From Methanomassiliicoccales archaeon (GTDB lineage: Archaea > Thermoplasmatota > Thermoplasmata > SG8-5 > JAGLSY01): a DNA stretch of 52,457 nt. Position 1 is the stretch's first letter. Every line of letters starts with the position of its first letter. The position numbers and the translations under genes are program-made. The notes beneath the pieces are model-generated. The model did no database searches. It saw only the letters and a list, made by a program, of their open reading frames with translations, and had not been told where the DNA came from. Shown here piece after piece: positions 1 through 32,781 of the stretch. The stretch spans positions 1-52,457 of the forward strand of contig DAOVGM010000046.1 of NCBI GenBank assembly GCA_030672365.1. Direction: 5' to 3'.

Positions 1-2750
1 CCAAGGTCTTCGCCGTGAACAAGGCCGGGTTGTTGATGGCAGAAGCCTCTTCGGAGGAAGCTGACATGGACGCGGACATCTTCGCCGGCATGCTCTCCGC
101 GGTGCAGGATTTTGTCAGGGACAGTTTCGACCAGACAGGGGATAAAAAGGCAGGACTCGGCAGGCTCGAGTACGGGGACATGAAAATCCTCATAGAGCAC
201 GGGGACCAGCTGTTTCTCGCCGCGGTCTTCGACGGTGCGGAGCATGAGGACATGAAAAACCTCCTGAAACGCACAATCCGGAGCATGGAGGAGGAACACG
301 GGCAGGCGCTCGAATCCTGGTCCGGGATGATGGAGGAAGTTACGGGAATTCAGGAAGAGGTCGACCACCTCACCGAGTCCAAATTCATCGTGAAAAAGAA
401 CCTGGAAGGCGTGAAGCTGGACAACGAGAGGGTGAGGATATCCGATAAAGCACTGGAGAGCCTGAAAAGATTGTCAGAAGACTGCGCGATTGCCGTTATT
501 CTCGAGGACCTTCACTGGGCTGATGAATCCAGCCTATTCGTTCTCAGATACCTGGCCAGGAACATCTGCGACGAGAAGATCCTCTTGATAGGCACGTTCA
601 GACCGGGCGAGAGTGACCTGTTCCTGACTGCGTTGGAGGAAATGACGGGGGAGCGGACCGTCGAAGAACTGACCCTGGAAAAACTGGGAGAGGACAGCGT
701 TTCCTCCCTTACTGAGGAGCTGTATCCCGGCCACGAGTTCCCGTCGAAATTGATAGAAAACCTGTCCACGAGGTGCAACGGAAATCCGTTATTTATCAAG
801 GAGATGCTCTGGCAGATGGGAGAGGAAGGGAACATTGCCATGCAAGACGGGAAGTACGTGCTCGTCAGCGAGGACTATTCGGTTCCGGATTCTGTTCAGG
901 AGGTTGTGGAAAAACGTCTCGGTCGTCTGGATGCGGGGACAATGGCGCTCGCGGAGTACGTCTCGTGCATAGGAAAGGAGTTCGATGAAAGCCTGGCCCT
1001 GTCCTACGAGTACGGAACCGATACCGCCGAAGCTCTCGGTATCCTTAAAGACCACGGCATCCTGCAACCGATGGGAGACGTCATGCAGTTCAGCCACGCG
1101 GTCTACCAGGATTTCATTTATACCAGCATTGCCGGGCGATGGAAGATAACCTATCACAAGAACCTGGGCGAGTACTACGAGAAATCATACCGCAGCAATC
1201 CCGACGCGGTAATGTACGAGCTGGCCAGACACTTCTCAAGGAGCGGTGATTTCGAGAAGGGGTTCGATTATTCCACAAGGGCCGGTGAGAAAGCTGTCGC
1301 GTCCTTCGCCACCGAGAAAGCTACGGAGTTGTACGAAAGCTCTCTGACCCTTGCTGAGAAGATTGTGGGGAACTCGGAAGTGGAATCGAAGGTTCCTGTC
1401 GTGATGGAGAGGTTGGGCGACCTCTACACTATTAGCGGAATCTACGAGAAGGCCTTGGCCAGTTATACCTCATCTTACCAGCGGATTGAGGAAAGCTATG
1501 ACAAAGCGAGGATGCACCGTAAGCGTGCTGATGTCTTGGAAAAATGCAGCAAGTATGACGAGGCTTTCTCGCAACTGGACGCGGCCGAGTCCCTGCTCCC
1601 CGCAAAGGACTCTCTCGAGACGGGTAGGATATCGATTCAGCGCGCTTTCCTACACACTAGGAAGGGAGAGTATGCGGATGCCATCAAACTCGCTTCTGAG
1701 TCATGTGATTTACTGGCAGGAAATGCGGACATAAGTCACGAGAAGGAGATCGCGAAAGCATTGCACATAATCGGTCTGTGTTATTGGTATGAAGGCAAAT
1801 ATTCCAGTTCCCTGGAACATAACTACAAGTCTCTGGAATTGAATGAGAAGAGCGGAGATCTGCGGGGCGTCGCTTCTTCATGCAACAGCATCGGGCTCAT
1901 CCATACAGAGAAGGCAGAGTATGCGGAAGCCATTAAATGGTTCGAGAAGGCATTGGCTCTTCGGAAGAGCACGGGCGACATTCAAGGGTATGGCATGACT
2001 TATAGCAACATAGGGAGGGTGCATGTCAGGAAAGGGGACTATTCGTCAGGTTTGAAATACTACAAGGAAGCATTGAGCATCGGAGAGAGAATCGGGGACC
2101 GGTTCTTTGTGGCAACTGTTTACAACAACCTCGGGATAATGTGCCTGGGAAAGGAGGATTACACGGAAGCGCAGCAGTATTTCGAATCATCTCTCGCAAC
2201 CAGGTTGAAGCTCGGAGACCAGGAAGGCATCGCTACCTCGTATAACAACATCGCAAACGTTCTGACCGGACTCGGCGAACATACTCAGGCCATTGAAGCT
2301 CACAACAGGTCGATGGAGATTTGCCGGGCCATCGGAAATGACGACACAATAACCTACAACCTTTACGGGCTGGCAGAGACATATCTCGACATGGGGCAGG
2401 TCGACGAGGCGGAGAACAATTGTCTCGAAGGATATGGGCTGGCCAAGGAAATCGGCGCAAAAGAGATGGAGTTGTGTTTTCAACATCTCATGGGAGTCAT
2501 CGAGCGGGAAAGGGGGAACTGGGAAGGATCTGAGGAGAAATTCAAAGCTGCACTTGACGGGTTGATCGAATATGGGAAGGAATCCGACGCCGCGGAGACG
2601 AAATACGAGTACGGCGTGCTGCTATTCAGGATGGGAGACAGAGATGGGGCGAAGCTAATGATACAGGAAGCAAGGGAGGTTTTCCTGCAATGTGGTTTTT
2701 CAAATTTGACGCACAAGTGCAACAGGATGCTGGAGGAGTTGGATGAATGA
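1..2750 (+). CDS. STAND-like P-loop NTPase (AAA_16 type) with roadblock/longin-like insert and C-terminal TPR array, paralog A; 5' end truncated by window edge
   Basis: The frame is open to base 1. The first residues KVFAVNKAGLLMAE align with KLFAVNMAGMLVAE about 110 aa into paralog C, so Walker A lies upstream of the window. Walker B-like AVILEDLHWADESS is present, followed by C-terminal TPRs of about 40-aa period. Stop TGA 2748-2750 overlaps the next ATG (ATGA). Confidence 0.8.
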   Translation, partial: KVFAVNKAGLLMAEASSEEADMDADIFAGMLSAVQDFVRDSFDQTGDKKAGLGRLEYGDMKILIEHGDQLFLAAVFDGAEHEDMKNLLKRTIRSMEEEHGQALESWSGMMEEVTGIQEEVDHLTESKFIVKKNLEGVKLDNERVRISDKALESLKRLSEDCAIAVILEDLHWADESSLFVLRYLARNICDEKILLIGTFRPGESDLFLTALEEMTGERTVEELTLEKLGEDSVSSLTEELYPGHEFPSKLIENLSTRCNGNPLFIKEMLWQMGEEGNIAMQDGKYVLVSEDYSVPDSVQEVVEKRLGRLDAGTMALAEYVSCIGKEFDESLALSYEYGTDTAEALGILKDHGILQPMGDVMQFSHAVYQDFIYTSIAGRWKITYHKNLGEYYEKSYRSNPDAVMYELARHFSRSGDFEKGFDYSTRAGEKAVASFATEKATELYESSLTLAEKIVGNSEVESKVPVVMERLGDLYTISGIYEKALASYTSSYQRIEESYDKARMHRKRADVLEKCSKYDEAFSQLDAAESLLPAKDSLETGRISIQRAFLHTRKGEYADAIKLASESCDLLAGNADISHEKEIAKALHIIGLCYWYEGKYSSSLEHNYKSLELNEKSGDLRGVASSCNSIGLIHTEKAEYAEAIKWFEKALALRKSTGDIQGYGMTYSNIGRVHVRKGDYSSGLKYYKEALSIGERIGDRFFVATVYNNLGIMCLGKEDYTEAQQYFESSLATRLKLGDQEGIATSYNNIANVLTGLGEHTQAIEAHNRSMEICRAIGNDDTITYNLYGLAETYLDMGQVDEAENNCLEGYGLAKEIGAKEMELCFQHLMGVIERERGNWEGSEEKFKAALDGLIEYGKESDAAETKYEYGVLLFRMGDRDGAKLMIQEAREVFLQCGFSNLTHKCNRMLEELDE

Positions 2751-5700
2751 ATGAACTGGCTCTGCAACAGCCGGAACTTATCGGTCGGGAGGATGAATTG
2801 GATAAACTCAGCCGATCTCTGGATAATGCAATCGAGGGCAATGGTTCGACGATTTTCATAGGCGGAGAAGCAGGCATTGGAAAAACCAGGCTCGTTTGCG
2901 AATTAATGAAGGATGCAGAATCCAAAGGTGTCCATATGATACAGGGTTGGTGCCTTGCGGAGAGCCTCGAGCCACTTATGCCCATCAAGACCGCCCTGAG
3001 GGAAGCCAGGATGTTTCACCTGGTATCTGGGGATCCGCCCCCGAAGGTTGTCTCGGCTTATCTCATTGACGATGCAGGCATGCTTATGAACAAGGCCGAG
3101 AGGGAAGAATCCGGTTTGGACCCGGACATTTTCGCCTCAATGTTGCAGGCGGTCGGGAACTTCATAAAGGACTCGCTCTCAATGATGGATAGCGACTCCG
3201 GTGCTCACCTTCACTCTCTGGGGTACGGAGAATACACCATCCTGCTCCAGTCCCATGGCACGTTATCCCTGGTCACCGTTATCAAGGGCACGAACAGCGA
3301 GTTCCTGATTGACGACATGAAGCAGGTTCTTGCCGAAACAGGAAGCAAATTCGATGACTGGTCTGGGGACATTTCCAAAACCGAGGAGCTCCAGCCCAAA
3401 ATCTCATGGTTCGTCGACTCAGGAAAATATGACGGCAGATTCCTTGTGGACGATGCAAAGATCAAGCAGGAAAATTTGTTTGATAATATCCTGTTGGGCA
3501 TACAGAGGGCATCCCTGGAAAAGCCAGTGCTTCTGTTTCTGGATGATTTACAGTGGTCTGACCCCAGTTCCCTGAACCTTATCCATTACCTTGCCAGGAA
3601 CAGCAGGAATAACAGGGTTCTTATTCTAGGAACCTACAGGCCGGAGGATATCTTAGAAGCCCATGACGGGAAGACTCATCAGTTGGAAATCGCCTTGCAG
3701 GGCATGAGCAGAGAGGACCTTCTCCATAAAATGGAACTGAAAAGGCTGGGACCAGAGGAAACTAAGAGGATAGTCGAATCAATGCTCGGCCAGACCGCCT
3801 TTGAGAAAGATTTCTTCGATAAGATATTCAAGGACACTGACGGCTCTCCCTTCTTCATCCTAGAAGTCATCAAGATGCTGGCGGAGGACAAGGCCATCGA
3901 GCAGGATGAAGATGCCTGGCGATTGAAGAAAGAGCTGGATGAGATCGATGTTCCATCCAAGGTCTACGACGTCGTAAAACGACGACTGGACAGATTGATG
4001 AAGGAACAAAGAAGAATGCTTGACTGTGCCAGTGTAGTTGGTCAAGAGTTTCAATCCGAGATTGTCGGCCGGGTCATGGGAGTGAACAAGTTACAACTTC
4101 TGGAGAATCTTAGCGAAATCGAGAAAGTCCACCGTCTGATTCACTATCTGAAAGACAAATATAAATTTGACCATGCAAAGATTCAGGAAGTGTTATACAA
4201 CAGTATAGGGGAGGAACTTAGAAAAGAGTATCACAAGATTATTGCTGACACGATAGTGGAACTACACGAGGACAATCCGGATGACGTTGTAAATGAACTG
4301 GCCTATCATTATTGTGAGGCCAGAGATGAGAGAGCTGGAGGATATCTTGTTATGGCAGGCGACAAAGCAAAGGAAGAGTTTGCGAATGAGGAATCAATCA
4401 AGTTATACGCAAATGCTGTCGTCCTGATAAAGAATGAGGAAAGAGTGGAAGTCCTAGAGAAGCTTGGAGATGTCCAGTCGCTCATCGGTGATTTTGATAA
4501 GGCTATCGAGAACTTTGAAAAAGCAAAAGGAACAGCCGAGGACAAAGAGACCAAGGCCAGGATGCTGAGGAAGAGCAGCGATGTCTATGAGAGGATGGGC
4601 GAGTATGACAAATCCTTAGAGTTGTTGGCCAGGGCGAAGAAATTAATAGAAGAAGGGATGGCAGAGTATGGCAAGATATGTTTTGGCGAAGGATATGTCC
4701 ACTGGAAAAAGGGAGATTACGACAATGGCCTGCCCCTCTTCAGGACAGCCCTGAAGATATTCGAGGAGACGGGAGACGACCAGAAGGATATTGGCAATGC
4801 GCTCCGAGCGGTCGGCAACATTCACACAAGCAAAGGAGGTTACGACGAAGGTGTCCAATACTATGAAAAGAGTCTGGCCGTGATGGAGAAGATAGGGGAT
4901 CAATATGGTATCGCGACCGCACTCAACAACATCGGCATCGTGCATAAACACAAGGGCGAGTTTGACAGGGCGCTAGAGTTCCAGGAGCGCAGTCTGGAGA
5001 TTCTGGAGAAGATCGGGGATAAGCAGGGCATAGCGATGTCGCTGTACAACATCGGTGTCGCGCACTATGAGAAGGGCGAGCCGGTGAGTGTGCTGGAGTT
5101 CTATGGGCGCAGTCTGGAGATTCTGGAGAAGATCGGGGACAAGCAGGGCATAGCGATGTCGCTGTACAACATCGGTGTCGTCTACCATGACAGGGGCGAG
5201 CTGGAGAAGGCGCTGGAGTTCCACGAGCGTGGCCTGGAGATTCTGGAGAAGATCGGGGACAAGTGGGGCATAATGATCTCGCTCAGCAACAGCGCCGCCG
5301 TCTACCATGACAGGGGCGAGCTGGAGAAGGCGCTGGAGTTCTACGAGCGCGGCCTAGAGATATGTTTAGAGATTGGTGAAAAGCGTGTGTCTATCCACCA
5401 CCACTGCGGGCTGGCAGAGGTCAAACTTGAAATGGGCGACGTGCAAATTGCGTTCGAACACGCGGAAAAGGCGATCAGGGTTGCCATCGATATCGGCGCA
5501 AAATCCGAAGAAGGCATGAGCCATCGGGTCCTGGGGATGGTGTATCGGGAGAAGAAAGACAGGGACAACGCAATTGAAGAGTTCGAGAAGGCCAGGATTA
5601 TTCTTGATGAGTTTGGCGAGAAAATTGAGCTGGCCAAGGTGTTCTATGAGCATGGTCTATTGTTCAAGGTCAAAGGCGAACCCGCCAAAGCCCGTGAGTA

Positions 5701-5791
5701 TCTCAAAAAAGCTCACTCCGAGTTCGAGCGCATGGGCATGAAGCTGAGGGAAGAGAAGTGCAGGAAGGCGCTGGGGGAGTTGGAGGGATGA
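2747..5791 (+). CDS. STAND-like P-loop NTPase (AAA_16 type) with roadblock/longin-like insert and C-terminal TPR array, paralog B
   Basis: The N-terminus is ELIGREDELDKL...GGEAGIGKTRL (Walker A). Walker B-like LLFLDDLQWSDPSS comes about 220 aa later. The insert reads DPDIFASMLQAVGNFIKDSL...GYGEYTILLQSHGTLSLVTVIKG. A long TPR array follows. GGAGG lies upstream and there are ATGA overlaps at both ends. Confidence 0.85.
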   Translation: MNELALQQPELIGREDELDKLSRSLDNAIEGNGSTIFIGGEAGIGKTRLVCELMKDAESKGVHMIQGWCLAESLEPLMPIKTALREARMFHLVSGDPPPKVVSAYLIDDAGMLMNKAEREESGLDPDIFASMLQAVGNFIKDSLSMMDSDSGAHLHSLGYGEYTILLQSHGTLSLVTVIKGTNSEFLIDDMKQVLAETGSKFDDWSGDISKTEELQPKISWFVDSGKYDGRFLVDDAKIKQENLFDNILLGIQRASLEKPVLLFLDDLQWSDPSSLNLIHYLARNSRNNRVLILGTYRPEDILEAHDGKTHQLEIALQGMSREDLLHKMELKRLGPEETKRIVESMLGQTAFEKDFFDKIFKDTDGSPFFILEVIKMLAEDKAIEQDEDAWRLKKELDEIDVPSKVYDVVKRRLDRLMKEQRRMLDCASVVGQEFQSEIVGRVMGVNKLQLLENLSEIEKVHRLIHYLKDKYKFDHAKIQEVLYNSIGEELRKEYHKIIADTIVELHEDNPDDVVNELAYHYCEARDERAGGYLVMAGDKAKEEFANEESIKLYANAVVLIKNEERVEVLEKLGDVQSLIGDFDKAIENFEKAKGTAEDKETKARMLRKSSDVYERMGEYDKSLELLARAKKLIEEGMAEYGKICFGEGYVHWKKGDYDNGLPLFRTALKIFEETGDDQKDIGNALRAVGNIHTSKGGYDEGVQYYEKSLAVMEKIGDQYGIATALNNIGIVHKHKGEFDRALEFQERSLEILEKIGDKQGIAMSLYNIGVAHYEKGEPVSVLEFYGRSLEILEKIGDKQGIAMSLYNIGVVYHDRGELEKALEFHERGLEILEKIGDKWGIMISLSNSAAVYHDRGELEKALEFYERGLEICLEIGEKRVSIHHHCGLAEVKLEMGDVQIAFEHAEKAIRVAIDIGAKSEEGMSHRVLGMVYREKKDRDNAIEEFEKARIILDEFGEKIELAKVFYEHGLLFKVKGEPAKAREYLKKAHSEFERMGMKLREEKCRKALGELEG
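4975..5360 (+). repeat. Intragenic tandem repeat, 120-bp unit (about 3 copies); each unit encodes one 40-aa TPR of paralog B
   Basis: Rows 4981-5040, 5101-5160 and 5221-5280 are near-identical (gcagtctggagattctggagaagatcgggga[tc]aagcagggcatagcgatgtc). The peptide LEILEKIGDKQGIAMSLYNIGV is repeated verbatim. Confidence 0.9.
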
Positions 5792-8583
5792 CTGAACTGG
5801 CCCTTCAACAAACGGAACTCATTGGCAGGGATGAAGAGCTGAATAAACTCAAGTCATGTTTAGATAATGCCATCAATGGTGAGGGGTCCACGATATTCAT
5901 CTCCGGAGAGGCAGGCATTGGAAAAACTAGGCTGGTCGATGCCTTTCGGGAATTTGCCGCGACACAGAATGTCACGGTCTTGACGGGCGCTGGGTCTGCA
6001 GATATCAGCCAGCCGTTTTTGATATTCTCCAAGGCATTTGGGGAAGTTATGGAGAAACCGCTGTTCGAGGAGCAGGAATACAAGGGATTCGCCAAGCTCT
6101 TCGCGGTGAACATGGCAGGGATGCTGGTTGCCGAAACCTCGGCCGAGGAAGAGGACTTGGATGCGGACATCTTTGCCGGTATGCTGTCGGCTGTCCAGGA
6201 CTTTGTGCGCGACAGTTTCGACCAGGCAGGAACGCAAAAAGCCAGCTTAGGGCGCCTCGAGTACGGGAACATGAAGATTCTTATCGAGCACGGTGCGCAA
6301 ATCTTTCTCACGGCAGTCTTTGCCGGCGAGGAGCACCCGGATATGAAACGTCTTCTGAGACGAACGCTGGAAGACATCGAGGAAAAGCACGCCCCAGTCC
6401 TCGAATCCTGGTCCGGGCAGATGAAGGACACTGCCCCCATACAGCAAGAAATCGCTAAGCTGGCCGATGTGCAGTTTCTTGTTCGAAGAAATCTCGAGGG
6501 CATAAGCATCGAAACCGAGAGGCTCAGGATTGCGGATGAAATCCTTGAAGTTTTGAAACGTTTATCAGCCGAAAAACCCATGATAATCTTTCTGGAGGAC
6601 CTTCACTGGACCGACGAGTCCTCACTGTTCGTCATCAATTACCTGGCAAGGAACATACGGAATTACTCCATCCTCCTGGCGGGGACCTTAAGACCCAGAG
6701 AATCAGCTTCACTTCAGAAAGCCATCGATAACATGAATAACGAGGAGATTCTGGATGAGATGGCCCTTGAACAGTTGGACTTCAAGAACACGATTAGGGT
6801 GATTGACAAAACATTTCCTCACAATGATTTTCCCGTTACACTGGCGGAACGGCTGTACGAACAATCAAAAGGCAATCCTCTCTTTGTCATAGAAATGCTC
6901 AAGGGGATGCATGACGATGGCAGTATTGCAAAACAGGATGGGGCATACACATTGGTATCAGAGTCATATCAGATTCCAGCTACCGTAGAGGAGGTGGTCA
7001 ACCGCAGATTGGAGACTCTCGACCCGGACACCATGGCCATGGTGGAATATGCTTCCTGCATCGGACAGAGGTTCGACATGTCCCTTGCGGCATCCAATCG
7101 ATTGATGAAGGAACCGTATGCATCACTAGAAAAATTGCTGGCATCGGGCATTCTTTTGAAAAAGAACGGGACCATAGAGTTCAGCCATGCGGTGTTCCAA
7201 AGTGTGATATACAATGGCATAGGGGAGAGATGGAAAAACGGGCATCACAGGAACCTTGGCGAGTACCTTGAAATGACCTACGTAGATAGACTGGACGAGG
7301 TCATTTACGATCTGGCAAGGCATTTCTCCAGAACAAAGGAATATAAGAAATGTACCGATTATTGCACAAAGGCAGGGGAGAAGGCTGAGGGCTCCTATGC
7401 AATGGAGCAGGCATTAGAATTCTACAGAGAGGCCCTGGATGCGCTTTCCAGACTGGACCAAACCTATGCCCACGATATAACTTTGGATATACTGGAGAGA
7501 ATCGGGGACATCCAGGCCATCATGGGGGACTTCGATGGGGCCACCGGGGAATTCCGAAAGGCAGTAGATATCGCTGATGACAAAGAAACCAAGGCCAGGC
7601 TGCTGAGGAAGGTCGGCAGTATGCATGAAAGGAAAGGAGAATACGACAAGTCCCTGGAGATTCTGGCAGAGGCCAAGGGATTGGTGGATGCAGATAAAGC
7701 CGAGTACGGCAGGATACTCCGTATTGAAGGGGGAATATACTGGCGAAAGGGAGAATACGACAAAGCCATGCCCCTCTTTTTAAAGTCTATAGAGATAGCT
7801 GAAAAAATCGGCGCAGACAAGAAGGATATCGGTAACGCACTCAGAACGGTTGGTATCATCCACCATAGCAGGGAAGAATATACTCTCGCCATGCAGTATT
7901 ACCAAAAAAGTCTGGCCATTATGGAGGATATCGGAGAATTGAATGGCATCGCGGCGGTGCTGAACAACATTGGTGTCGTGCACTATGAGAAGGGCGAGCT
8001 GGACAGGGCACTGGAGTTCCACGGGCGCAGCTTGGAGATAAAGGAAAAAATAGGGAACAAACAAGGAATTGCGACGTCGCTGAACAACATTGGTATCGTG
8101 CACGCAGATATGGGCAATCAGGATAGAGCAGTGGAGCACTATGAAAAATGTTTGGCCATAAGCCTTGAGATTGGGGATAAAAGTGGGGCAATTTATGTTT
8201 ATTACGGTCTGGCAAAAGTCAAACTTGGGAAGGGCGATGCCCGGGCAGCCTTTGAAAATGGGGAAAAGGCAAGAAGGATTGCTGTGAAGATTGGTGCCAA
8301 GATGGAAGAAGGCATGAGTCGCCGGATATTGGGCATGGCACATCGGGAGATGAAGGATTGGGACAGGGCGACCGAGGAATTCGGAAAGGCCCAAAAAATC
8401 TTGCAAGAGGTCGGCGAAAAGAATGAACTGGTAATATTATCCTACGAGCTCGCCCTCCTCTTCAAAGCCAAAGGCGAACCCGCCAAAGCAAAGCCACACA
8501 TTGAAAAGGCCCTGGCCATGTTCGAGGAAATGGGCATGAAGCTGTGGATTGAGAAGTGTGAGAAGGCGCTGGCTGAACTGTAA
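5788..8583 (+). CDS. STAND-like P-loop NTPase (AAA_16 type) with roadblock/longin-like insert and C-terminal TPR array, paralog C
   Basis: I prefer start ATG 5788 (MTELALQQTELIGRDEEL) over track start 5758. It parallels the paralog B N-terminus, makes an ATGA overlap with the upstream stop and has GGAGGG immediately upstream. Motifs: SGEAGIGKTRL, IIFLEDLHWTDESS, and a TPR array homologous to paralog B. Confidence 0.85.
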   Translation: MTELALQQTELIGRDEELNKLKSCLDNAINGEGSTIFISGEAGIGKTRLVDAFREFAATQNVTVLTGAGSADISQPFLIFSKAFGEVMEKPLFEEQEYKGFAKLFAVNMAGMLVAETSAEEEDLDADIFAGMLSAVQDFVRDSFDQAGTQKASLGRLEYGNMKILIEHGAQIFLTAVFAGEEHPDMKRLLRRTLEDIEEKHAPVLESWSGQMKDTAPIQQEIAKLADVQFLVRRNLEGISIETERLRIADEILEVLKRLSAEKPMIIFLEDLHWTDESSLFVINYLARNIRNYSILLAGTLRPRESASLQKAIDNMNNEEILDEMALEQLDFKNTIRVIDKTFPHNDFPVTLAERLYEQSKGNPLFVIEMLKGMHDDGSIAKQDGAYTLVSESYQIPATVEEVVNRRLETLDPDTMAMVEYASCIGQRFDMSLAASNRLMKEPYASLEKLLASGILLKKNGTIEFSHAVFQSVIYNGIGERWKNGHHRNLGEYLEMTYVDRLDEVIYDLARHFSRTKEYKKCTDYCTKAGEKAEGSYAMEQALEFYREALDALSRLDQTYAHDITLDILERIGDIQAIMGDFDGATGEFRKAVDIADDKETKARLLRKVGSMHERKGEYDKSLEILAEAKGLVDADKAEYGRILRIEGGIYWRKGEYDKAMPLFLKSIEIAEKIGADKKDIGNALRTVGIIHHSREEYTLAMQYYQKSLAIMEDIGELNGIAAVLNNIGVVHYEKGELDRALEFHGRSLEIKEKIGNKQGIATSLNNIGIVHADMGNQDRAVEHYEKCLAISLEIGDKSGAIYVYYGLAKVKLGKGDARAAFENGEKARRIAVKIGAKMEEGMSRRILGMAHREMKDWDRATEEFGKAQKILQEVGEKNELVILSYELALLFKAKGEPAKAKPHIEKALAMFEEMGMKLWIEKCEKALAEL

Positions 8584-8610: not shown

Positions 8611-9612
8611 TCACAATTTTTTCCTGAAGGTGAAGAATGTCTTATCGACCTTAAACCCCATCGCCTCGTAGAGCCGAAGTGCACCCGTAGGGTTCTCGGC
8701 GTCCACGCCCAGGCAGGCCTCTTTCATTCCCAGATCACGGAGTAAAACAAAGCTTCTGGCTATCAGTGCCTTGGCGACCCCGCGCCCGCGCCACTCGCGC
8801 CCCACATGGATGAACTCCGAGTACCCTCGCAGGCGGTCGTACTTCTTGTTCTCCTCCTCGTTGATGAACGGCAGGACTGCTCCAGCGACCTTATCTCCGT
8901 CCCAGGCGACCTGCCACTTCTCGGGCTGGAACTCAGGATGCTCGAGCCAGTGCTTGTACCGCTCCTCGGAGATCTCCGTCATTTCCCACCCGTCCTTCGA
9001 TGCCTCGTTGTCGGCCTCCCAGACCTTTCTGTAATGGTCGGGTGTGGCTGGCCTGACCTCCAGTCCTTCGGGAAGCGGCATGTCCGGAAGCTCTCCGGTA
9101 ATGGGGCGGGTCATGAAGTAACCGTACCTGACCTTCGAATAGCCCGATGATTCTATGATGGATATCCAGAGGTCTTCGTTGCTCATCGACCATGTCTGGA
9201 ATTCCTTGGTCTCGGTGTCGGGATGCTGCTTTGCGACCTCCCTCCCTCTTTTTTCATTCCAGGCGATGATCGCCTTTCTGATTCCCTTTCCGTACCAATC
9301 CGGGTCCAGGACCACGAAGTGATTGTAGTTGTAGCCGGACTGTTGCTTCCTCGACCAGTAAACTCTGGAATAGCCAATGACCGACCAGTCTAACTCGGCA
9401 ACTAAAATGTCTTTGAAGGGATCACAATTGACAAGATGTTTGTATGACAATTTGAATTCGTCCAGTGTTTGGAGCATGTCGAAATCCAAGACCACATTTT
9501 CTTTCAAGTGGATATTGTGAAAGAACGGCAGGTCATCTTCTCCCCTGTAGCCGCGAAAGCGTAACCCACGAACGTCGGGCATGTCCTGAATCTCAAAGTA
9601 TTCACTGCTCAT
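8611..9612 (-). CDS. GNAT family N-acetyltransferase, two-domain (MshD-like layout)
   Basis: The C-terminal half has a GNAT acetyl-CoA motif, REWRGRGVAKALIARS...LRLYEAMGFKV. The N-terminal half has WYGKGIRKAIIAW. The ATG is at 9612. Confidence 0.8.
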   Translation of the reverse strand: MSSEYFEIQDMPDVRGLRFRGYRGEDDLPFFHNIHLKENVVLDFDMLQTLDEFKLSYKHLVNCDPFKDILVAELDWSVIGYSRVYWSRKQQSGYNYNHFVVLDPDWYGKGIRKAIIAWNEKRGREVAKQHPDTETKEFQTWSMSNEDLWISIIESSGYSKVRYGYFMTRPITGELPDMPLPEGLEVRPATPDHYRKVWEADNEASKDGWEMTEISEERYKHWLEHPEFQPEKWQVAWDGDKVAGAVLPFINEEENKKYDRLRGYSEFIHVGREWRGRGVAKALIARSFVLLRDLGMKEACLGVDAENPTGALRLYEAMGFKVDKTFFTFRKKL

Positions 9613-9666
9613 GACAAACCACTGGCAAACATAACCAATAAAAGAACTTTTTCATCGACCCGGAGC

Positions 9667-10362
9667 TCAGACTATCTCGAATCCGTCCTTATCGAATATC
9701 AGCGGGTAATAACCGCGCTTGTGATTGGTCTGGCGCATCTTGACGATGCTGAGGAAAAGGTTGACACTCTTTCCGCTCCTGTGCATATCCAGGTGCATGA
9801 TCCCGTCTGCCAGAAAATCCTCTCCGTACTTGCAGAACTCGTCGGAGCCTTGGGTCATCTCGGTGATGACAAACGTGGTCACATCCAGGTCTTTGAGCCA
9901 TTCGAAGAGGAAAAATAATTCCTCTCTTGGATTGGTGAACTTCGCCATGACCTCCAGAGCTGCCAGGGAATCTATGACCAGCAGGTTCATGTTCATGTTA
10001 TTATTGAGGTTATCGAGGTACATCCTGAGGGTTTCCATCCAGGTTTGGTTGCTCAGCTGGGTGAGTTTTTTCCTTATCATCCCCATGTCCAGAATGCTGA
10101 GCTCCTTTCCCATAAGGGACTGGATATCGCTCATTCCAAGACTTTCCATGTTCGCGGTCAGGCTTTTTCGACCCTGCTCCAAGGTCACAAAGACCCCGTT
10201 CAGGTCCTTCTGGCAGGCATTTTGGTACAATATATTGAAAGCGAAGGAAGATTTCATCGTGCCGGGTTTTCCGGCCACCATAACCATGCTTCCCGCTGGA
10301 ATACCGCCCTGCATCTCCTTGTCCAGACCCTTTACGTAGGTCTTGATCCTCTTGACTTTCAT
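9667..10362 (-). CDS. KaiC-like / RecA-superfamily single-domain ATPase (COG0467-like), deviant Walker A
   Basis: GLDKEMQGGIPAGSMVMVAGKPGTMKSS carries Walker A with Met where the GK[ST] Gly is expected. LLVIDSLAAL is the Walker B. I prefer ATG 10362 (MKVKRIKTYVKGLD, parallel to the paralog at 26010) over track GTG 10395. Confidence 0.8.
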   Translation of the reverse strand: MKVKRIKTYVKGLDKEMQGGIPAGSMVMVAGKPGTMKSSFAFNILYQNACQKDLNGVFVTLEQGRKSLTANMESLGMSDIQSLMGKELSILDMGMIRKKLTQLSNQTWMETLRMYLDNLNNNMNMNLLVIDSLAALEVMAKFTNPREELFFLFEWLKDLDVTTFVITEMTQGSDEFCKYGEDFLADGIMHLDMHRSGKSVNLFLSIVKMRQTNHKRGYYPLIFDKDGFEIV

Positions 10363-10514
10363 AACACTCACACAAGGTTCATTCCCTGAGTTCACTAAGA
10401 CAATAAAAGACTATCGGTATGCGAGATATTCTTCTATTTCCTTCTCCATTACCCATCCTGCCCCCGGGTCTTAATATCATTTTCGATGGAAATCCCGGAA
10501 GTGCCCAACAAAAC

Positions 10515-11639
10515 TCAACTCTTCACCAGTTCCTTCACGTCGTCGACCAAATCCTTCGAGCCGGCCCTCGTCAAAACATCAATTGCCTTGTGGATCATGT
10601 CGACTGCCAGGTCCACCCTGCCCATCTTCAAATAGACCTGGGCCAGTTCGTACCTGAAGACCCCGAGGTCATACGGAACACCGAGATGCTCCATCCTGCG
10701 CTCCGCCTTCACGAGCCATTCCATTCCATTATCTGTCCTCCCGTGGGCGTCCTCGAGCAGTCCCCTGACGAACCACGTGCAGGCCACTGCGTACTTGTCC
10801 TCTGAATCCTTCAGAACTTCCCGGGCTTTCGCGAACTCCTCCTCCGCGACGTCCAGCTCCCCCTTGCGGGCATGGCATTCGGCCAGGTTCGTGTAGAGGT
10901 ATCCGAGGCGCTTCACGTCCTTGCCGACAACGGACACGCCTTCTTCATAGGTCTCGATGGCCTTGTCGAAATCGTGCATTCGTTTGTACACTTCCCCCTG
11001 ATTATTCAGCGCCCTGGCCATGTCTGATGTGTTTCCCGCGTTCCTGTAAGTTTCGACAGACAGCTTCGCGGCCTTCAAAGCCTCATCGAATTCACCACGT
11101 TCAAACCATGCCGATGAAATTATACTGGCGGCACCGCCGGCCAACACGTACTCTTCGTTCTCCAGGCCTATTCCCAGAACCTTCCCGGCGGTTTCGATGG
11201 CCTTCCTGTTCTCACCGCTTCTCCAGAAGATGTTGGCCTTTCCGGCCAGGACATAACCGTACTGCACCCGGTTTTTAAAATTCTTGACGATGGCCTCGGC
11301 CTCGTCGAACATCACCATCGCCTTTTCTCGCTTGCCCATCTTGTTGAAGACGAAACCCGCGCGTGTCAAACCGGTAGCCAGCGTCTCGTGGTCGTTGATG
11401 GCTCGCGCACCGTCTATCACCTGGTTAATGTACATCAGGTTGTCGAAGAGCCTGCCCTGATTCTTCAGAACGTCGGTCATGGTCACGAGCAGTTCCAGAC
11501 GGTCCTTAACCTCCCGCTCGTCCAGTGTCTTACTTTCGCTGTCCTTCAACGCGGCCAGGCAGATGTCATGGGCATTGTCGTAATCCTTCGCGTCCAGGGC
11601 CTCCTTGGCCAAATTTATCTCGGTCTGAATGTCGACCAT
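10515..11639 (-). CDS. TPR repeat protein
   Basis: The 374-aa protein is made almost entirely of TPR-like helical pairs of about 40-aa period (..YVLAGKANIFWRSGENRKAIE.., ..ARALNNQGEVYKRMHDFDKAIETYEEG..). The ATG is at 11639. Confidence 0.8.
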   Translation of the reverse strand: MVDIQTEINLAKEALDAKDYDNAHDICLAALKDSESKTLDEREVKDRLELLVTMTDVLKNQGRLFDNLMYINQVIDGARAINDHETLATGLTRAGFVFNKMGKREKAMVMFDEAEAIVKNFKNRVQYGYVLAGKANIFWRSGENRKAIETAGKVLGIGLENEEYVLAGGAASIISSAWFERGEFDEALKAAKLSVETYRNAGNTSDMARALNNQGEVYKRMHDFDKAIETYEEGVSVVGKDVKRLGYLYTNLAECHARKGELDVAEEEFAKAREVLKDSEDKYAVACTWFVRGLLEDAHGRTDNGMEWLVKAERRMEHLGVPYDLGVFRYELAQVYLKMGRVDLAVDMIHKAIDVLTRAGSKDLVDDVKELVKS

Positions 11640-11674
11640 GGCAACAATATTTGATAGACATATATTATTTAACT

Positions 11675-12208
11675 TTATCCAAAGACCGTCTCCATCACGC
11701 GTTTGTGCACGGCCAGGTCTCCCTCGGAATACAAAACAAAACGAATCAACTTCACGCTCTGAAGCTCCGGAATGGCAGCTTGAATCGTCGAGAAGGCCAC
11801 CTGTGTGGCCTCCTCCTTCGGATAGCCGAACGCACCTGTGGAAATAGAGGGAAACGCGATCGATGAAAGGCCGTTCGAGTCAGCAAGCCGCAAAGCATTC
11901 CGATAGCAGTCGGCCAGCAGTTCTCCCTCCGGTTTATCTCGGCCGTAAATGGGACCGAGGCAATGGATGACGTGCGGGTTCGGCAGGTTGTGGCCCGAAG
12001 TGATGACAGCTTCCCCCGGTTCAATGGGGGCCAGCGGCGCACACTCCTTCTCCAGGCCGGGCCCCGCGGCGCGGTGAATCGCACCGGCGACCCCGCCGCC
12101 CATCCTGAGCATGGCATTGGCTGCATTGACAATCGCATCGATGCCCACCTGGTCCGCGATGTTGCCCTGAATGCAATCGACAACAATACCCGATAACTCG
12201 ACCTCCAT
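11675..12208 (-). CDS. Macrodomain protein (ADP-ribose binding / O-acetyl-ADP-ribose deacetylase-like, YmdB/Af1521 type)
   Basis: GNIADQVGIDAIVNAANAMLRMGGGVAGAIHRAAG and IAFPSISTGAFGYP are canonical macrodomain motifs. Confidence 0.85.
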   Translation of the reverse strand: MEVELSGIVVDCIQGNIADQVGIDAIVNAANAMLRMGGGVAGAIHRAAGPGLEKECAPLAPIEPGEAVITSGHNLPNPHVIHCLGPIYGRDKPEGELLADCYRNALRLADSNGLSSIAFPSISTGAFGYPKEEATQVAFSTIQAAIPELQSVKLIRFVLYSEGDLAVHKRVMETVFG

Positions 12209-12214: not shown

Positions 12215-12979
12215 CTACCTCCTGCGTTGCAGGTTCTGCATCGCCTGCTGATACTGCTGTGCTGTAATCTGTCCGCTCTGATAGGCCACCTGCACCTTCT
12301 CTATCTTCAGCATGTTGTCGACGTCGGCATTGCACCCGGGACAGTAGTCATCGTCATCCGCGACGAACTCGCCGCAGTTCGGGCAGTCGACGCCCTCCAC
12401 TTCCTCGTACTCATCGTCGTCCAGCTCGCGGACACCGGGCCTGTAAGCCGGGGCCTTGGATTTCTTTTTGTGCCTCTCCCTCAAAATCGGGTGGCGGTCG
12501 ATGTGCGCCTCCAGAATTCTCTGCTGAAGCCTGGGTGTCGGGAACTCCCTCTCGCCCTTGACGGCCAGAACGAGCGCAGACAGCGTGCAAACGAAAGTGA
12601 TGAATGTAAGTGTCGGCCAGAGAACGCTGTTGAACAGATTAATGACAGAAACGCCCAGAGCCAGTGCCATGAAAGTCATGATAAGGGGGAAGTTGCGTCG
12701 TGTATGTAGGAGATAGAATATTACCAGGCCGGCAACGAAAATCAGGAGGTTCATCAGGGCGTTCCAGATGAATTCCAGATTCCATTCTTGTGACAAACCG
12801 TGCCAATCGAATGCCCATAAAATCGCGTCTATGAAGATGAATAAAAAGAAAATCGACGTGACGATTATAAGGTACATGCCAGCATACTGGAAATTGCTCC
12901 TATCCTCTCGTTGCAGAAACCAATCTTCCGAACTATCCTCGGTCATTTTTACCACAAATCTGTAAGTTCCCCACGGCAT
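12215..12979 (-). CDS. Membrane protein with cytoplasmic zinc ribbon and SHOCT-like C-terminus
   Basis: The first ~150 aa contain several hydrophobic helices. CPNCGEFVADDDDYCPGCN is a zinc ribbon. The tail LKIEKVQVAYQSGQITAQQYQQAMQNL resembles the SHOCT short C-terminal domain. The stop lies 6 nt from the macrodomain start. Confidence 0.6.
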   Translation of the reverse strand: MPWGTYRFVVKMTEDSSEDWFLQREDRSNFQYAGMYLIIVTSIFFLFIFIDAILWAFDWHGLSQEWNLEFIWNALMNLLIFVAGLVIFYLLHTRRNFPLIMTFMALALGVSVINLFNSVLWPTLTFITFVCTLSALVLAVKGEREFPTPRLQQRILEAHIDRHPILRERHKKKSKAPAYRPGVRELDDDEYEEVEGVDCPNCGEFVADDDDYCPGCNADVDNMLKIEKVQVAYQSGQITAQQYQQAMQNLQRRR

Positions 12980-13039
12980 ATAAGTTTTTCAATCGTTGCT
13001 CAGGATGTTTTATTACTTCGAAATTAATATCTCAACCGC

Positions 13040-14089
13040 ATGCCCAAGCAATTCAAGTGCCAGAACTGCTCCGCAATCGTCCGGTACGACCCGTCCAGCC
13101 ACGGCCTCAAGTGCGAGTACTGCGGCTCGGTGGAAGTCCTGGAAGTGAAGCTGGAAAGGCCGGAGGAGCACGACCTGTTCTCCGCCCCCGCGCATCTCGG
13201 CTGGGACGCCGATGTCAAGATAATGAAATGCGACTCGTGCGGAGCCGCACTGGCCTCGGAGGGTAAGATATCCGGAAAGTGCGCGTTCTGCGGTTCGAAC
13301 TTTGTCAAGGAACAAAAACCGAACCCGGACATAATCCGCCCCGAAAGCACGGTGCCATTCAAGATCGATTTGAACGGAGCAACCCAGAGATTCAAACGCT
13401 GGCTGGGCAAGGGATTTTTTCGTCCCGGGGACCTGAAGAAGATCAGCCGCCTTCAACTTCTTCAAGGCATCTACACGCCCTTCTGGACTTACGATTGCAG
13501 CGCCCACTCGGACTGGTGGGCGATGAGCGGTTATTATTACTACGTCTCGAAGCGGGTCAAGACCAGCCAGGGATGGAGGACCACTCAGGAGCGAAAGGTC
13601 AGGTGGGTGCCGTCGTCGGGCTCGCGAAACGGCGCGTACAACGATGTTCTGATCATCGCGTCGAAAGGTCTGGACGAGGGCATGACAAAGAGCATCTACC
13701 CATTCGAACTGTACGCCCTCGAGGCATACCGCCCCGAATTTCTGAGCGGCTGGCTGGCGGAGGAATATTCCGTCACCCTTCCCAAAGGTTGGCTCAAGGC
13801 CAGACGCCACGTCGAGAGCCGGGAATACCAGCAGTGCAAGTTCGTGGTTCCGGGAGACACGCACCGCTCTCTGAGTGTTAACACAACGCTCAGCGACGTC
13901 ACCTACAAGCACATGCTCCTGCCAATCTGGGTCGCGGCCTACCAGTACAAAAAGAAAACTTACCACTTCCTCATAAACGGGCAGACCGGCAAGGACAGGG
14001 GCGAGGCCCCTATATCCTGGCTGAAGGTCGCGGCTGTCGCGCTGGCCATCGCCGCATCGGTCATTGCCGTCTACTTCTTCGCGCGTTGA
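13040..14089 (+). CDS. Double zinc-ribbon protein with C-terminal transmembrane anchor (function unknown)
   Basis: CQNC..CEYC and CDSC..CAFC form two ribbons. The C-terminal TM is LKVAAVALAIAASVIAVYFF. The ATG is at 13040. The opposite-strand 317-aa ORF is judged a shadow. Confidence 0.65.
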   Translation: MPKQFKCQNCSAIVRYDPSSHGLKCEYCGSVEVLEVKLERPEEHDLFSAPAHLGWDADVKIMKCDSCGAALASEGKISGKCAFCGSNFVKEQKPNPDIIRPESTVPFKIDLNGATQRFKRWLGKGFFRPGDLKKISRLQLLQGIYTPFWTYDCSAHSDWWAMSGYYYYVSKRVKTSQGWRTTQERKVRWVPSSGSRNGAYNDVLIIASKGLDEGMTKSIYPFELYALEAYRPEFLSGWLAEEYSVTLPKGWLKARRHVESREYQQCKFVVPGDTHRSLSVNTTLSDVTYKHMLLPIWVAAYQYKKKTYHFLINGQTGKDRGEAPISWLKVAAVALAIAASVIAVYFFAR

Positions 14090-14095: not shown

Positions 14096-14320
14096 CTAAT
14101 GCTTGTGGCCAGTAAATACAAATGAGCTTCTTCGCAATCTGATAATCTGGCCGTCGACCTTGCCAATCACATTACCGCACTTGCACTTCGCCTTCCCGTC
14201 CTCGTAGACGGCCAGGTCTTCCGCGATCCGGTCCCTGTGGCATTTGATGAGCTGCCCCTGCCCTATCTTGACATATTTAAAAACCCGCGATTTGCATTTG
14301 GCGCACTTGATGGTCAACAT
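14096..14320 (-). CDS. Small Cys-rich (zinc-finger-like) protein
   Basis: The 74-aa protein has CAKC near the N-terminus and CKC near residue 46. It starts 4 nt downstream of the flavodoxin stop, so it is likely co-transcribed. Confidence 0.5.
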   Translation of the reverse strand: MLTIKCAKCKSRVFKYVKIGQGQLIKCHRDRIAEDLAVYEDGKAKCKCGNVIGKVDGQIIRLRRSSFVFTGHKH

Positions 14321-14324
14321 GAAG

Positions 14325-14801
14325 TTACTTCGTTCCGCAGCCCAGCATCACCAGCTGCGCGAACCTCTCCCCGAACCTGCGGCACGATTCTCGCTCCGGC
14401 CCCTCTGGCTCTCCGATAGACACCGGCCCGTAATGATTTCCCGACGGATCGCCCTGGATGACCATCCCGTGAATCAGCATGGCGTCGTGGATGCCCCTTA
14501 TCGTGGTCTCGAAACCGGAGACGGCGGCAGTCGCGAAAGCGCCCCCTACCTTACCATCCAGCTTGCCGTGGACCGCAACGCTCCTGTCGAACAGATACTT
14601 GAGCTCGCCGCCCATCACGCCGTAATACGTCGGAGAGCCGACGATTATTCCGTCGGCTGCCCTCATGTCCTCGGGGGTAGTGTCCTTCGCGATCTTAATT
14701 TCGACGTGGAGTCCCTCTCCTTCGACGGCCTCGCCGATCATCTTCGCCATCTTTTCAGTGTTGCCGGACTTCGATTGATAGACTATCAGAACCTTGGCCA
14801 T
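14325..14801 (-). CDS. Flavodoxin-like FMN protein (WrbA / NAD(P)H-FMN reductase-like)
   Basis: MAKVLIVYQSKSGNTEKMA ... DGIIVGSPTYYG is the flavodoxin-fold FMN-binding signature. Confidence 0.85.
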   Translation of the reverse strand: MAKVLIVYQSKSGNTEKMAKMIGEAVEGEGLHVEIKIAKDTTPEDMRAADGIIVGSPTYYGVMGGELKYLFDRSVAVHGKLDGKVGGAFATAAVSGFETTIRGIHDAMLIHGMVIQGDPSGNHYGPVSIGEPEGPERESCRRFGERFAQLVMLGCGTK

Positions 14802-14967
14802 TTGTTTCCCTCGTCACGGGCATACGCAGGTCGGTAAATGAACTTTTCTCCTAATTTCAATTGATTTTGAAGCAGTCATCCCCTTAACTTGATTATAATT
14901 CTCCCGAAATTCTTAAAAGCAATGTCCCGATAACCTGAGATATCATAATCCCCAGGGGAGGCATTGT
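14802..14967. promoter_or_regulatory. Divergent intergenic region with TATA-like boxes
   Basis: This AT-rich spacer sits between divergent genes. It contains ttcttaaaagc and gattataattc TATA-like strings. A GGGGAGG Shine-Dalgarno lies 6 nt before ATG 14968. Confidence 0.3.
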
Positions 14968-25917: not shown

Positions 25918-26009
25918 AACCGGCGGATTGGGGATTCAAATAAAAGGTTTTCCCCCCCATCTTTTATACTTAAACTTCCATTATGATACTGAATAAATAT
26001 CTGGAGGGC

Positions 26010-26720
26010 ATGGGAATGGTCGAGAAAATTAAGACTTATATCGAGGGTTTTGACGAGATTTTAGGCGGCGGTATACCTACTGGCCACGTAGTATTGGTAT
26101 GCGGCACCCCGGGCACAATGAAGACATCGCTCACGTTCAGCATGATGTACGAGAACGCCCGTCGGGAGGGTCGTCGAGGCCTCTACATTTCCCTCGAGGA
26201 AGGGTATGAAGGTCTCAAGGGGGCAATGGAAGACCTCGGGATGACTGGCATCGACGAGTTGGAAGTATACATGGTGGACGTCGGAAAGATCCGCATAACC
26301 CACAAGGAAGAGGAGCACGGCCGCAACTGGCTCCAGATTATCGAGAAGTACATCAGGAAGAGGGTTCAGGAGGACGAGTTCGACATTCTGGTAATCGATT
26401 CGCTGGCTGCCCTTTATTCACTGACCGAATTGAAGCATCCCAGGGTCGAGTTGTTCCATTTTGTCCGATTTCTGAAAGAGCTGAAATCTACTGTAGTTCT
26501 CATTTCGGAGATAAGCCATGGCAGTGTCCAGATGGTCGCCAATGACGAGGATTTTCTTGTCGATGGAATTCTGTATCTCAAGCTGCACGAAGTCGGGGAG
26601 GCCGATATACAATTGAGGATATCATGCGTCAAGATGAGGCGGACCCAACACGACAGGGGCTGGCTCAGGCTGATACACAGGGTCGACAAGTTTGTGGCTC
26701 ATCCAGTCATCTCAGAATAA
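26010..26720 (+). CDS. KaiC-like / RecA-superfamily single-domain ATPase, paralog 2, deviant Walker A
   Basis: GGAGG lies 4 nt before ATG 26010. GFDEILGGGIPTGHVVLVCGTPGTMKTS carries the deviant Walker A. ILVIDSLAAL is the Walker B. It is collinear with 9667..10362. Confidence 0.8.
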   Translation: MGMVEKIKTYIEGFDEILGGGIPTGHVVLVCGTPGTMKTSLTFSMMYENARREGRRGLYISLEEGYEGLKGAMEDLGMTGIDELEVYMVDVGKIRITHKEEEHGRNWLQIIEKYIRKRVQEDEFDILVIDSLAALYSLTELKHPRVELFHFVRFLKELKSTVVLISEISHGSVQMVANDEDFLVDGILYLKLHEVGEADIQLRISCVKMRRTQHDRGWLRLIHRVDKFVAHPVISE

Positions 26721-27477: not shown

Positions 27478-27560
27478 GTTCCAATAATCCCAAAAGTCTG
27501 TTAGAGGGCAAGGAATATCCGACAGATTTAATCATCGTATTATTATGGTCTATTGCAACA

Positions 27561-32777: not shown

Positions 32778-32781
32778 ATAA

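Follow-up and report, generated by a model that had tools for sequence, protein, structure and literature searches.

The first 8.6 kb of a 52,457-nucleotide stretch of DNA from a Methanomassiliicoccales archaeon (contig DAOVGM010000046.1 of assembly GCA_030672365.1; the whole stretch is called the window here) carry three co-directional paralogs in series on the plus strand, genes A, B and C, whose products are classed by sequence and predicted structure as AAA_16-type STAND nucleoside triphosphatases (NTPases) with tetratricopeptide repeat (TPR) arrays, of the MalT-LAL-like branch. Our main finding is that the NTPase fold of these proteins accommodates, ahead of the Walker B motif, an additional domain of about 135 amino acids (aa), which is predicted to be an independently folding member of the longin/Roadblock superfamily and to leave the P-loop core undisrupted. 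On the models, the trio proteins are intact STAND NTPases, probably active, with a longin/Roadblock-fold domain next to the predicted nucleotide site. The features of the trio are these:

3 to 2750, plus strand: paralog A, 915 aa, cut at its 5' end by the window start (translation; C-terminal piece of Pfam AAA_16, and TPR_12)
3 to 413, plus strand: remainder of the A insert, aa 1-137, with the match to the hidden Markov model (HMM) of the insert at aa 1-117; includes the helix DADIFAGMLSAVQDFVRDSF
492 to 518, plus strand: Walker B of A, AVILEDLHW
2747 to 5791, plus strand: paralog B, complete, 1014 aa; AAA_16 NTPase with insert, helical and winged-helix domains, and TPR array
2864 to 2887, plus strand: Walker A of B, GEAGIGKT, invariant in 47 homologs
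3032 to 3436, plus strand: insert of B, longin/Roadblock-like, aa ~96-230 (AlphaFold, Foldseek, and weak Pfam matches in family members)
3530 to 3556, plus strand: Walker B of B, LLFLDDLQW, aa 262-270
4334 to 5788, plus strand: TPR array of B (Pfam TPR_12, 1.6e-64, and others; PDB sequence matches to TPR proteins)
5788 to 8583, plus strand: paralog C, complete, 931 aa; architecture as B; forms a divergent subfamily together with A
5905 to 5928, plus strand: Walker A of C, GEAGIGKT
6079 to 6504, plus strand: insert of C, longin/Roadblock-like, aa ~98-239 (insert HMM match and alignments)
6583 to 6609, plus strand: Walker B of C, IIFLEDLHW, aa 266-274
7366 to 8580, plus strand: TPR array of C (Pfam)

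The STAND core and the inserted segment

Paralog B scores 79.8 bits against Pfam AAA_16 (cut-off 32.6) and 25.3 bits against NB-ARC (cut-off 23.5), and TPR_MalT is matched as well. TPR families span the C-terminal half of the proteins, with TPR_12 E-values of 1.6e-64 in B, 3.7e-49 in C and 4.3e-55 in A. An earlier interpretation of the window, made from its letters and translations (the sequence-only reading), had described AAA_16-style heads, and these are present in B (ELIGREDEL and GGEAGIGKTRL) and in C (ELIGRDEEL and SGEAGIGKTRL). Paralog A opens inside the inserted domain, its head lying outside the window, and continues through Walker B and a helical/winged-helix part into its TPR array.

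The same reading had called attention to a long spacing between Walker A and Walker B, and in B about 220 aa do separate Lys46 of Walker A from the acidic pair of Walker B. It had allowed that such a spacing, or the segment itself, might be ordinary for AAA_16 proteins, and this is not what the homologs show: among 120 of them the Walker A-Walker B distance is 222-227 aa with the insert, as against 113-134 aa in insert-less relatives. The nearest of the latter are AAA_16-TPR proteins of Bathyarchaeia type and fusions of AAA_16 to an α/β-hydrolase, and they have a linker of 40-60 aa between the helix after β2 and the helix before Walker B, where the trio has the domain of ~135 aa. Because the insert-less relatives have a short linker at the same place, the intervening segment is a true domain insertion and not a normal AAA_16 feature. 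The AAA_16 model is matched in two pieces, residues 10-96 of B corresponding to model positions 1-85 and the stretch before Walker B, as read from A, to positions 103-164.

An AlphaFold model of residues 1-560 of B, built on 47 sequences (mean pLDDT 84), bears on whether such a graft would break the P-loop fold. In this prediction the sheet and the catalytic motifs are intact and the insert forms a separate unit: the core strands β1 (34-39), β2 (63-68), Walker B (261-266), the sensor strand β4 (291-297) and β5 (327-330) have a pLDDT of about 90 or higher, and they are followed by helices at 312-380 and by β-hairpin/helix units at 384-474, a predicted helical and winged-helix (NOD) module. Across 47 homologs the Walker A residues and Arg298 are invariant, and Asp267 of Walker B is nearly so. 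Foldseek searches with the 560-aa model place RuvBL1/2 on top, and also recover the STAND protein PH0952 (6mfv_A), MalT (8bob_C), Apaf-1, CED-4 and ORC/Cdc6.

Scans of the trio with Pfam, NCBIfam and PADLOC found no effector, helix-turn-helix or enzymatic output domain, as the sequence-only reading had also concluded. NCBIfam returned only generic AAA_16/TPR-containing models (e.g. TOMM kinase/cyclase), none of which covers the insert, and PADLOC only generic TPR models.

Fold of the inserted domain

The insert takes the place of the short linker from strand β2 to the helix that precedes the Walker B strand. Modelled in isolation (B aa 95-228), it reaches a pLDDT of 89 and a pTM of 0.84, and both AlphaFold models, that of the isolated domain and that of the 560 residues, give the order β-β-α-β-β-β-α-α over ~135 aa, with strands at 100-108 and 113-118, a helix at 126-147, strands at 155-160, 163-170 and 173-180, and helices at 185-202 and 209-224 of B. 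Of the β-β-α-β-β order proposed earlier, the β-β-α part holds in the models, and the end has to be corrected to three strands after the helix, followed by two helices.

A Foldseek search of the isolated insert against the PDB gave 66 matches at E<=1e-3, and the 50 of them that are listed are all longin or Roadblock proteins, with no other fold among those listed; the proposed resemblance to Roadblock, longin and MglB structures is thus borne out. The top match is a TRAPP longin subunit (7b6d_C; E 1.3e-5, TM 0.66, 142 columns), and the others listed include LAMTOR2/3 (p14/MP1), MglB (6izw_C, TM 0.61), dynein LC7, Mon1-Ccz1 and AP sigma. The Roadblock-type matches (LAMTOR2/3, MglB, LC7, the Streptomyces Robl protein 3kye and the Asgard Roadblock protein 7yh1) have E-values from 3e-5 to 7e-4 and TM scores of 0.5-0.65. 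A longin domain is a Roadblock domain minus the N-terminal helix and plus an extra C-terminal helix (PMC10933270). In the predictions, the five-stranded antiparallel sheet with a central helix on one face, as in Roadblock, is present, the N-terminal helix of classical Roadblock proteins is absent, and an extra C-terminal helix is found in both models, so that the predicted topology of the insert is closer to longin than to classical Roadblock.

The fold is not identifiable from sequence alone, where the signal is weak but consistent. When 49 diverse family members were compared with Pfam, six matched Robl_LC7 (best E 0.0063) and two matched Fuz_longin_1 (best E 0.0084); one member, P0090, is annotated by JGI as 'regulator of Ras-like GTPase activity (Roadblock/LC7/MglB family)'. 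A profile of the 49 inserts run against PDB sequences gave only spurious helical matches (SlmA, apolipoprotein), and these were discarded. The segment had been described as conserved in the three paralogs, and its conservation extends much further: a phmmer search recovered it in 501 cluster representatives at E<=1e-3, with 38 of these at E<=1e-30, which is far beyond chance. The domain is strongly conserved, central helix included. One member, P0031, carries an extra insertion of ~70 aa within the central helix of its insert.

Gene layout, distribution and ancestry

The ATGA start/stop overlaps that the sequence-only reading reported are exact, at 2747-2750 and 5788-5791, and suggest coupled translation of the trio genes. 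GGAGG motifs, which that reading had noted upstream of the starts, are present at 2732-2736, 10 nt before the ATG of B, and at 5782-5786, 1 nt before the ATG of C. Both fall within C-terminal codons of the preceding gene, and a GGGGGAG at 5773-5779 is better spaced for the start of C than the GGAGG at 5782-5786. For that start, the caller of open reading frames (ORFs) gives a GTG at 5758, and alignment with B and homologs favours the ATG at 5788. Since A, B and C are mutually only 30-39% identical, the trio is old and not the result of a recent duplication.

In most of the 501 cluster representatives the insert occupies residues ~90-245 of proteins of ~1000 aa with the architecture of the trio. 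A genome scan with one genome per GTDB species yielded 78 loci, nearly all of them labelled Thermoplasmata/Thermoplasmatota (Methanomassiliicoccales, DHVE2, Proteinoplasmatales and haloalkaliphilic lineages), with a few labelled only 'Methanobacteriota archaeon' or 'archaeon'; two protein-database matches are labelled Heimdall-/Hodarchaeales. Genomes hold many insert-bearing paralogs, in a lineage-specific expansion. Tandem arrays of 2-4 insert-bearing genes are present in nine loci, and most family members are solitary genes. Paralog B belongs to the main clade, at 57-66% identity to its nearest full-length relatives, and A and C form a deep separate clade together with one gene of locus L021. 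In L021 a B-type gene is followed by a C-type gene, the order seen in the window, at 40-65% identity.

Two neighbour-joining trees bear on the history of the insertion. In the tree of the inserts, those of A and C group with copies from non-STAND proteins, apart from the insert of B; the group comprises the A and C inserts (3-413 and 6079-6504, with the motif KILIEHG..IFLTA) and the copies in P0164, P0192, P0211, P0236, P0243 and P0249, which are giant CARDB/DUF5915 or DUF835-TPR proteins. This grouping of the sequences may reflect a second insertion or a domain swap. In the tree of the NOD with the insert removed, the insert-less AAA_16-hydrolase and AAA_16-TPR relatives from Bathyarchaeia nest among the insert-bearing lineages, a placement of sequences that may point to several gains of the insert or to its loss. 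The two trees disagree and both are without support values, and a single gain is therefore not established.

The domain outside STAND NTPases

The domain is not confined to STAND NTPases. A fourth carrier lies in the window itself:

22278 to 23969, plus strand: DUF835 at aa 7-144, the domain at aa ~213-339 (nt 22914-23294), then TPR (Pfam, insert HMM)

Aligned with the insert profile by hhalign, the domain of this protein gives a probability of 98.5% and an E-value of 3.8e-15. DUF835 is an inactivated KaiC-like domain (PMC5847659). The neighbouring gene (23980-25302, plus strand) encodes a protein that runs from DUF835 to TPR without the domain, and the two genes together make a natural with/without pair of non-STAND proteins.

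Elsewhere, the domain occurs in two or three copies in giant surface-type proteins of 1100-2200 aa with CARDB and DUF5915, and twice in tandem in a 572-aa protein; tandem copies are present in P0259. P0201 (694 aa) has two successive copies, at aa 88-238 and 279-425. No further copies were found, to E<=1, in the CARDB protein beside the GTPase in L085 or in the other called genes of the first 84 loci, DUF835 neighbours included. In locus L004 a DZR/zinc-ribbon protein carries a longin/Roadblock-like domain, and the zinc-ribbon protein of the window (12215-12979, minus strand) is without one. Within the STAND family, some members (P0177, P0163, P0204, P0232, P0244 and P0196) carry long regions of NosD/β-helix, fn3, cadherin-like or Ig-like type ahead of an AAA_16 head with insert, and these may be receptor-like versions of the module.

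Ras-family GTPases in the neighbourhood

All called genes of 84 loci were clustered, and after removal of duplicates 80 independent loci remained. The largest neighbour family other than the carriers themselves is a Ras-family GTPase of ~230-320 aa, with 20 genes in 14 of the 84 loci. These neighbours score 101 and 123 bits against Pfam Ras (cut-off 21.6) and keep the G1 (GDxAVGKT), G3 (DxxG) and G4 (NKxD) motifs. In the non-redundant set a Ras-family GTPase is present in 12 of the 80 loci, the gap to the insert-bearing gene being at most 105 bp in 10 of these; L084 has one also. GTPase and STAND genes stand in seven arrangements, and the loci concerned belong to several deep clades of the family:

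Arrangement 1: GTPase or GTPases upstream, same strand (L002, L081)
Arrangement 2: GTPase downstream, same strand, 5-nt gap (L084)
Arrangement 3: convergent, abutting (L019, L038, L048, L057)
Arrangement 4: one GTPase gene divergently upstream (L050)
Arrangement 5: divergent cluster of two GTPases plus DUF835, with the DUF835 gene between the GTPases (L045, L056, L076)
Arrangement 6: variant of arrangement 5, with the DUF835 gene closest to the STAND gene (L009)
Arrangement 7: beside a giant two-copy protein, itself divergent from the STAND gene (L036)

DUF835 proteins thus occur within the GTPase clusters, and the window has DUF835, the domain and TPR fused in one protein. Many of the adjacent GTPases are ~270-320 aa long, with a C-terminal extension of ~100 aa that has no Pfam match (L002, L009, L019, L036, L038, L045, L048, L056, L057, L076, L081 and L084). 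In several neighbour GTPases the catalytic Gln of G3 (DxxGQ) is replaced by Arg or Glu (e.g. WDVMGR, NDIMGE).

No GTPase neighbour was found beside three insert-less relatives, nor in 80 insert-less AAA_16 loci from metagenomes (647 kb), the latter a weak control, from remote taxa, mostly of soil and probably bacterial. This control set came from a metagenome scan for the A/C subfamily, which was dominated by the generic Walker B pattern and returned only insert-less AAA_16 loci.

Possible roles of the domain

Domains of the Roadblock and longin types form dimeric platforms to which small GTPases bind in a conserved orientation, and they serve as guanine nucleotide exchange factors (GEFs) or GTPase-activating proteins (GAPs) (PMC10933270, citing Levine 2013 and Miertzschke 2011; PMC4316618), examples of such GTPase platforms being MglB, Ragulator, TRAPP and Mon1-Ccz1 (PMC10933270, PMC4316618). 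By analogy, we see about an even chance that the insert is a docking or pairing surface, for a small GTPase in trans and/or for a second protomer, coupled to the ATP switch of the STAND NTPase. The proposal has the following parts: (i) the insert would work as longin and Roadblock domains do elsewhere, as a protein-protein platform that is normally dimeric. (ii) It would dock a small GTPase of the Ras family, whose gene lies close by in many genomes, and/or bring together two STAND protomers, perhaps paralogs that are translated together, as B and C may be. (iii) As the platform would hang directly on the nucleotide-binding domain, binding of the partner would be coupled to the switch from a closed to an open form that depends on ADP and ATP, and to oligomerisation. 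(iv) The coupling could run in either direction: the state of the GTPase would gate STAND activation, or the STAND protein would be a regulated GAP, GEF or scaffold for the GTPase. (v) The TPR array would be the sensor, or a scaffold for a further partner, and, as there is no built-in effector, the output would be the assembly itself or a recruited protein. A partner in trans is favoured because the domain occurs outside NTPases and because the Ras-family GTPase is the commonest conserved neighbour; known Roadblock and longin domains act on partners in trans. Tentatively, and with somewhat less than even confidence, we take the proposal further, to a fused pair of nucleotide switches in which GTPase state would control STAND oligomerisation or the STAND protein would act as a regulated GEF, GAP or scaffold; this would be a non-Asgard archaeal counterpart of the Ragulator/TRAPP-type platforms, in a multi-paralog network with inactivated-KaiC and TPR proteins.

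Several points weigh against the docking or pairing proposal. There is no small GTPase gene in the 52 kb of the window, the side upstream of A lying beyond it, and 68 of the 80 loci have no GTPase in the flank examined, so that any real link does not depend on adjacency in cis. The adjacency is, moreover, a raw count over these loci, and the large set with which it is compared is a weak control. Some longin and Roadblock proteins act without GTPases, such as dynein LC7 and the longin domains of SNAREs. As to the fold, the inserts of B and C alone match nothing in Pfam even at E<=10, and the similarity of the insert to Robl_LC7 (PF03259) is below the curated threshold, as it is for the longin families of Pfam. 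Every structure used here is a prediction, and the one of 560 residues gives the central helix of the insert a low pLDDT (52-62), which makes its packing against the ATPase uncertain.

The sequence-only reading had seen the insert as a regulator in cis, which would gate nucleotide exchange or hydrolysis by its own ATPase or sense a small ligand, as a lid or autoinhibitory element, with no need of a GTPase. We find this doubtful. The predicted position of the insert, in the connection from β2 to Walker B beside the nucleotide site, is what such a regulator would have, and STAND-TPR proteins do use intramolecular autoinhibition (PH0952, PMC6468293); this role has no direct support, however, and is not the one that the comparisons favour, and the domain is also found without an active NTPase, in the giant CARDB/DUF5915 proteins, in P0259 and in the DUF835-TPR protein. 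Proteins of the Roadblock family are traditionally described as 'NTPase regulators' (Koonin and Aravind 2000, cited in PMC4316618). The NTPases that known Roadblock and longin domains regulate are Ras-like GTPases and not AAA+ or STAND ATPases. Finally, a regulator in cis agrees with the lack of an adjacent GTPase in most loci, this window included, and leaves the recurrent tight adjacency of GTPases in the others unexplained.

The insert could instead serve purely for dimerisation or hetero-pairing, zipping two STAND protomers together through a β-sheet edge, so that homo- or heterodimers of A, B and C assemble on a ligand of the TPR array and the GTPases are no direct partners. This we judge unlikely as a full account. 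In nearly every complex that has been solved, Roadblock and longin domains occur as obligate dimers (PMC10933270), and the Foldseek targets LAMTOR, MglB, LC7 and TRAPP C1/C4 are dimeric; in this fold, however, docking and dimerisation are usually coupled, which makes pairing a subset of the docking proposal and not an alternative to it. Each protomer has one copy of the domain, the trio genes are apparently translationally coupled through their ATGA overlaps, tandem arrays of 2-4 paralogs recur and the succession of B-type and C-type genes is kept in L021, but most family members are solitary genes, so that hetero-pairing cannot be the general rule, and the GTPase/DUF835 neighbourhood would go unexplained.

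That these are antiviral, Avs-like STAND receptors, with a TPR array that senses a phage protein, an expansion driven by an arms race and an insert that is a lineage-specific decoration, is very improbable: the combination of STAND and TPR is frequent among defence proteins (PMC13581612), the expansion is lineage-specific with many paralogs per genome, an AbiEii gene adjoins one member and a Macro-domain gene lies near the trio, but there is no N- or C-terminal effector domain, PADLOC gave generic TPR models only, the neighbourhoods consist mostly of housekeeping and signalling genes and not of defence islands, and the insert is strongly conserved, central helix included, unlike a diversifying sensor.

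Other genes of the window

Directly after the trio, on the minus strand (8611-12208), follow genes for a GNAT acetyltransferase, a KaiC-like ATPase, a 374-aa TPR protein and a Macro-domain protein, none of which is conserved across loci. The GNAT protein has an N-terminal extension of ~180 aa without a strong Pfam match; a GNAT gene also follows the family member of L002, and the two are not detectably similar. Between 12215 and 16221, three ORFs (13013-13966, minus strand; 14244-14837, plus strand; 14968-16221, plus strand) have no Pfam match, and the product of 12215-12979 (minus strand) has a weak zinc-ribbon match. The 879-aa product of 17021-19660 (minus strand) is CDC48/VCP-like, with two AAA domains, AAA_lid_3 and, at its N-terminus, a region of ~360 aa without a Pfam match. 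Single-domain KaiC-like ATPases are encoded at 9667-10395 (minus strand) and 25983-26720 (plus strand), with E-values of 1.4e-44 and 5e-40 against Pfam 'ATPase'; with its KaiC-like, DUF835 and TPR genes, the window is rich in archaeal KaiC-type signalling components. The stretch ~27500-43200 has a GC content of 0.43-0.49, as against 0.50-0.55 elsewhere. It forms a cluster for the biosynthesis of surface glycans, which may have been acquired horizontally, and its products are DUF1616, glycosyltransferases, a DegT aminotransferase, a hexapeptide acyltransferase, an epimerase/dehydratase, a methyltransferase and a polysaccharide flippase.

Comparison with known systems

The trio shares with PH0952 of Pyrococcus (6mfv) and with MalT of E. 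coli a domain with Walker A and B, helical and winged-helix domains and a C-terminal TPR array. These proteins differ from it in having a short helical linker at the site of the 135-aa domain, and MalT has a DNA-binding output, which the trio is without. RuvBL1/RuvBL2 (TIP49), the top Foldseek match of the 560-aa model, resemble the trio in carrying a whole folded domain between Walker A and Walker B. They are classical AAA+ ring hexamers, and their domain II is an OB-fold. We rejected an identity with RuvBL/TIP49: the predicted insert is of longin/Roadblock type, the core is AAA_16/STAND and the TM scores are 0.28-0.32, and the likeness is thus an analogy of design and not kinship.

The best structural matches of the insert itself come from the TRAPP core (TRAPPC1/C4), LAMTOR2/3-Rag and Mon1-Ccz1 (7b6d_C, 5y39_G and 5ldd_B), which have the longin topology and in which dimeric docking of small GTPases is known. 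Those systems are multi-subunit, with free-standing domains, none of them inside an ATPase, and their identity to the insert is only 8-19%; homology at the level of the family is not established. MglB-MglA and the Streptomyces conservon CvnA-D offer another parallel, a Roadblock-superfamily domain that is genomically linked to a Ras-superfamily GTPase and a signalling ATPase or kinase. However, MglB and CvnB are small stand-alone proteins with the N-terminal helix, whereas the insert lacks that helix, has two C-terminal helices in the models and is spliced into a STAND NTPase. Because the neighbour GTPases keep the DxxG of G3 and match Pfam Ras best, we take them provisionally as Ras/Rab-like and not of MglA type. 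Archaeal KaiC-like/DUF835 signalling proteins (Makarova, Galperin and Koonin 2017, as cited in PMC5847659) are comparable in that DUF835 adjoins insert-bearing STAND genes and GTPases, and in that one protein of the window fuses DUF835, the domain and TPR; KaiC itself differs, being of the RecA superfamily (PMC11680916), another ATPase fold than STAND.

Proteins that join STAND to TPR, pairs of a Roadblock/longin domain with a GTPase, and domain insertions in AAA+ cores are each known. Their combination, a longin/Roadblock domain within a STAND nucleotide-binding domain and with a link to Ras-like GTPases outside Asgard archaea, is not found in the literature searched. The search turned up no described Roadblock- or longin-in-STAND architecture, in keeping with the statement of the sequence-only reading that it knew of no family with such a split architecture. 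To our knowledge, no known system wires STAND NTPases to Ras-like GTPases through a built-in adaptor.

No Pfam or NCBIfam model covers the insert, and since Pfam has none that detects it, the domain merits a family model of its own. A proper annotation could be given to hundreds of proteins that at present go under the names 'AAA family ATPase', 'tetratricopeptide repeat protein' or 'adenylate cyclase'. Among nucleotide-driven signalling switches, the STAND NTPases and the Ras-like GTPases make up the two great families. If the insert does dock the neighbouring GTPases, these loci would offer a simple prokaryotic system, its genes lying next to each other, in which to study how platforms read or set the state of a GTPase. 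In that case longin/Roadblock-GTPase modules, usually seen as the Asgard precursors of eukaryotic trafficking regulators, would have been elaborated independently in Thermoplasmatota.

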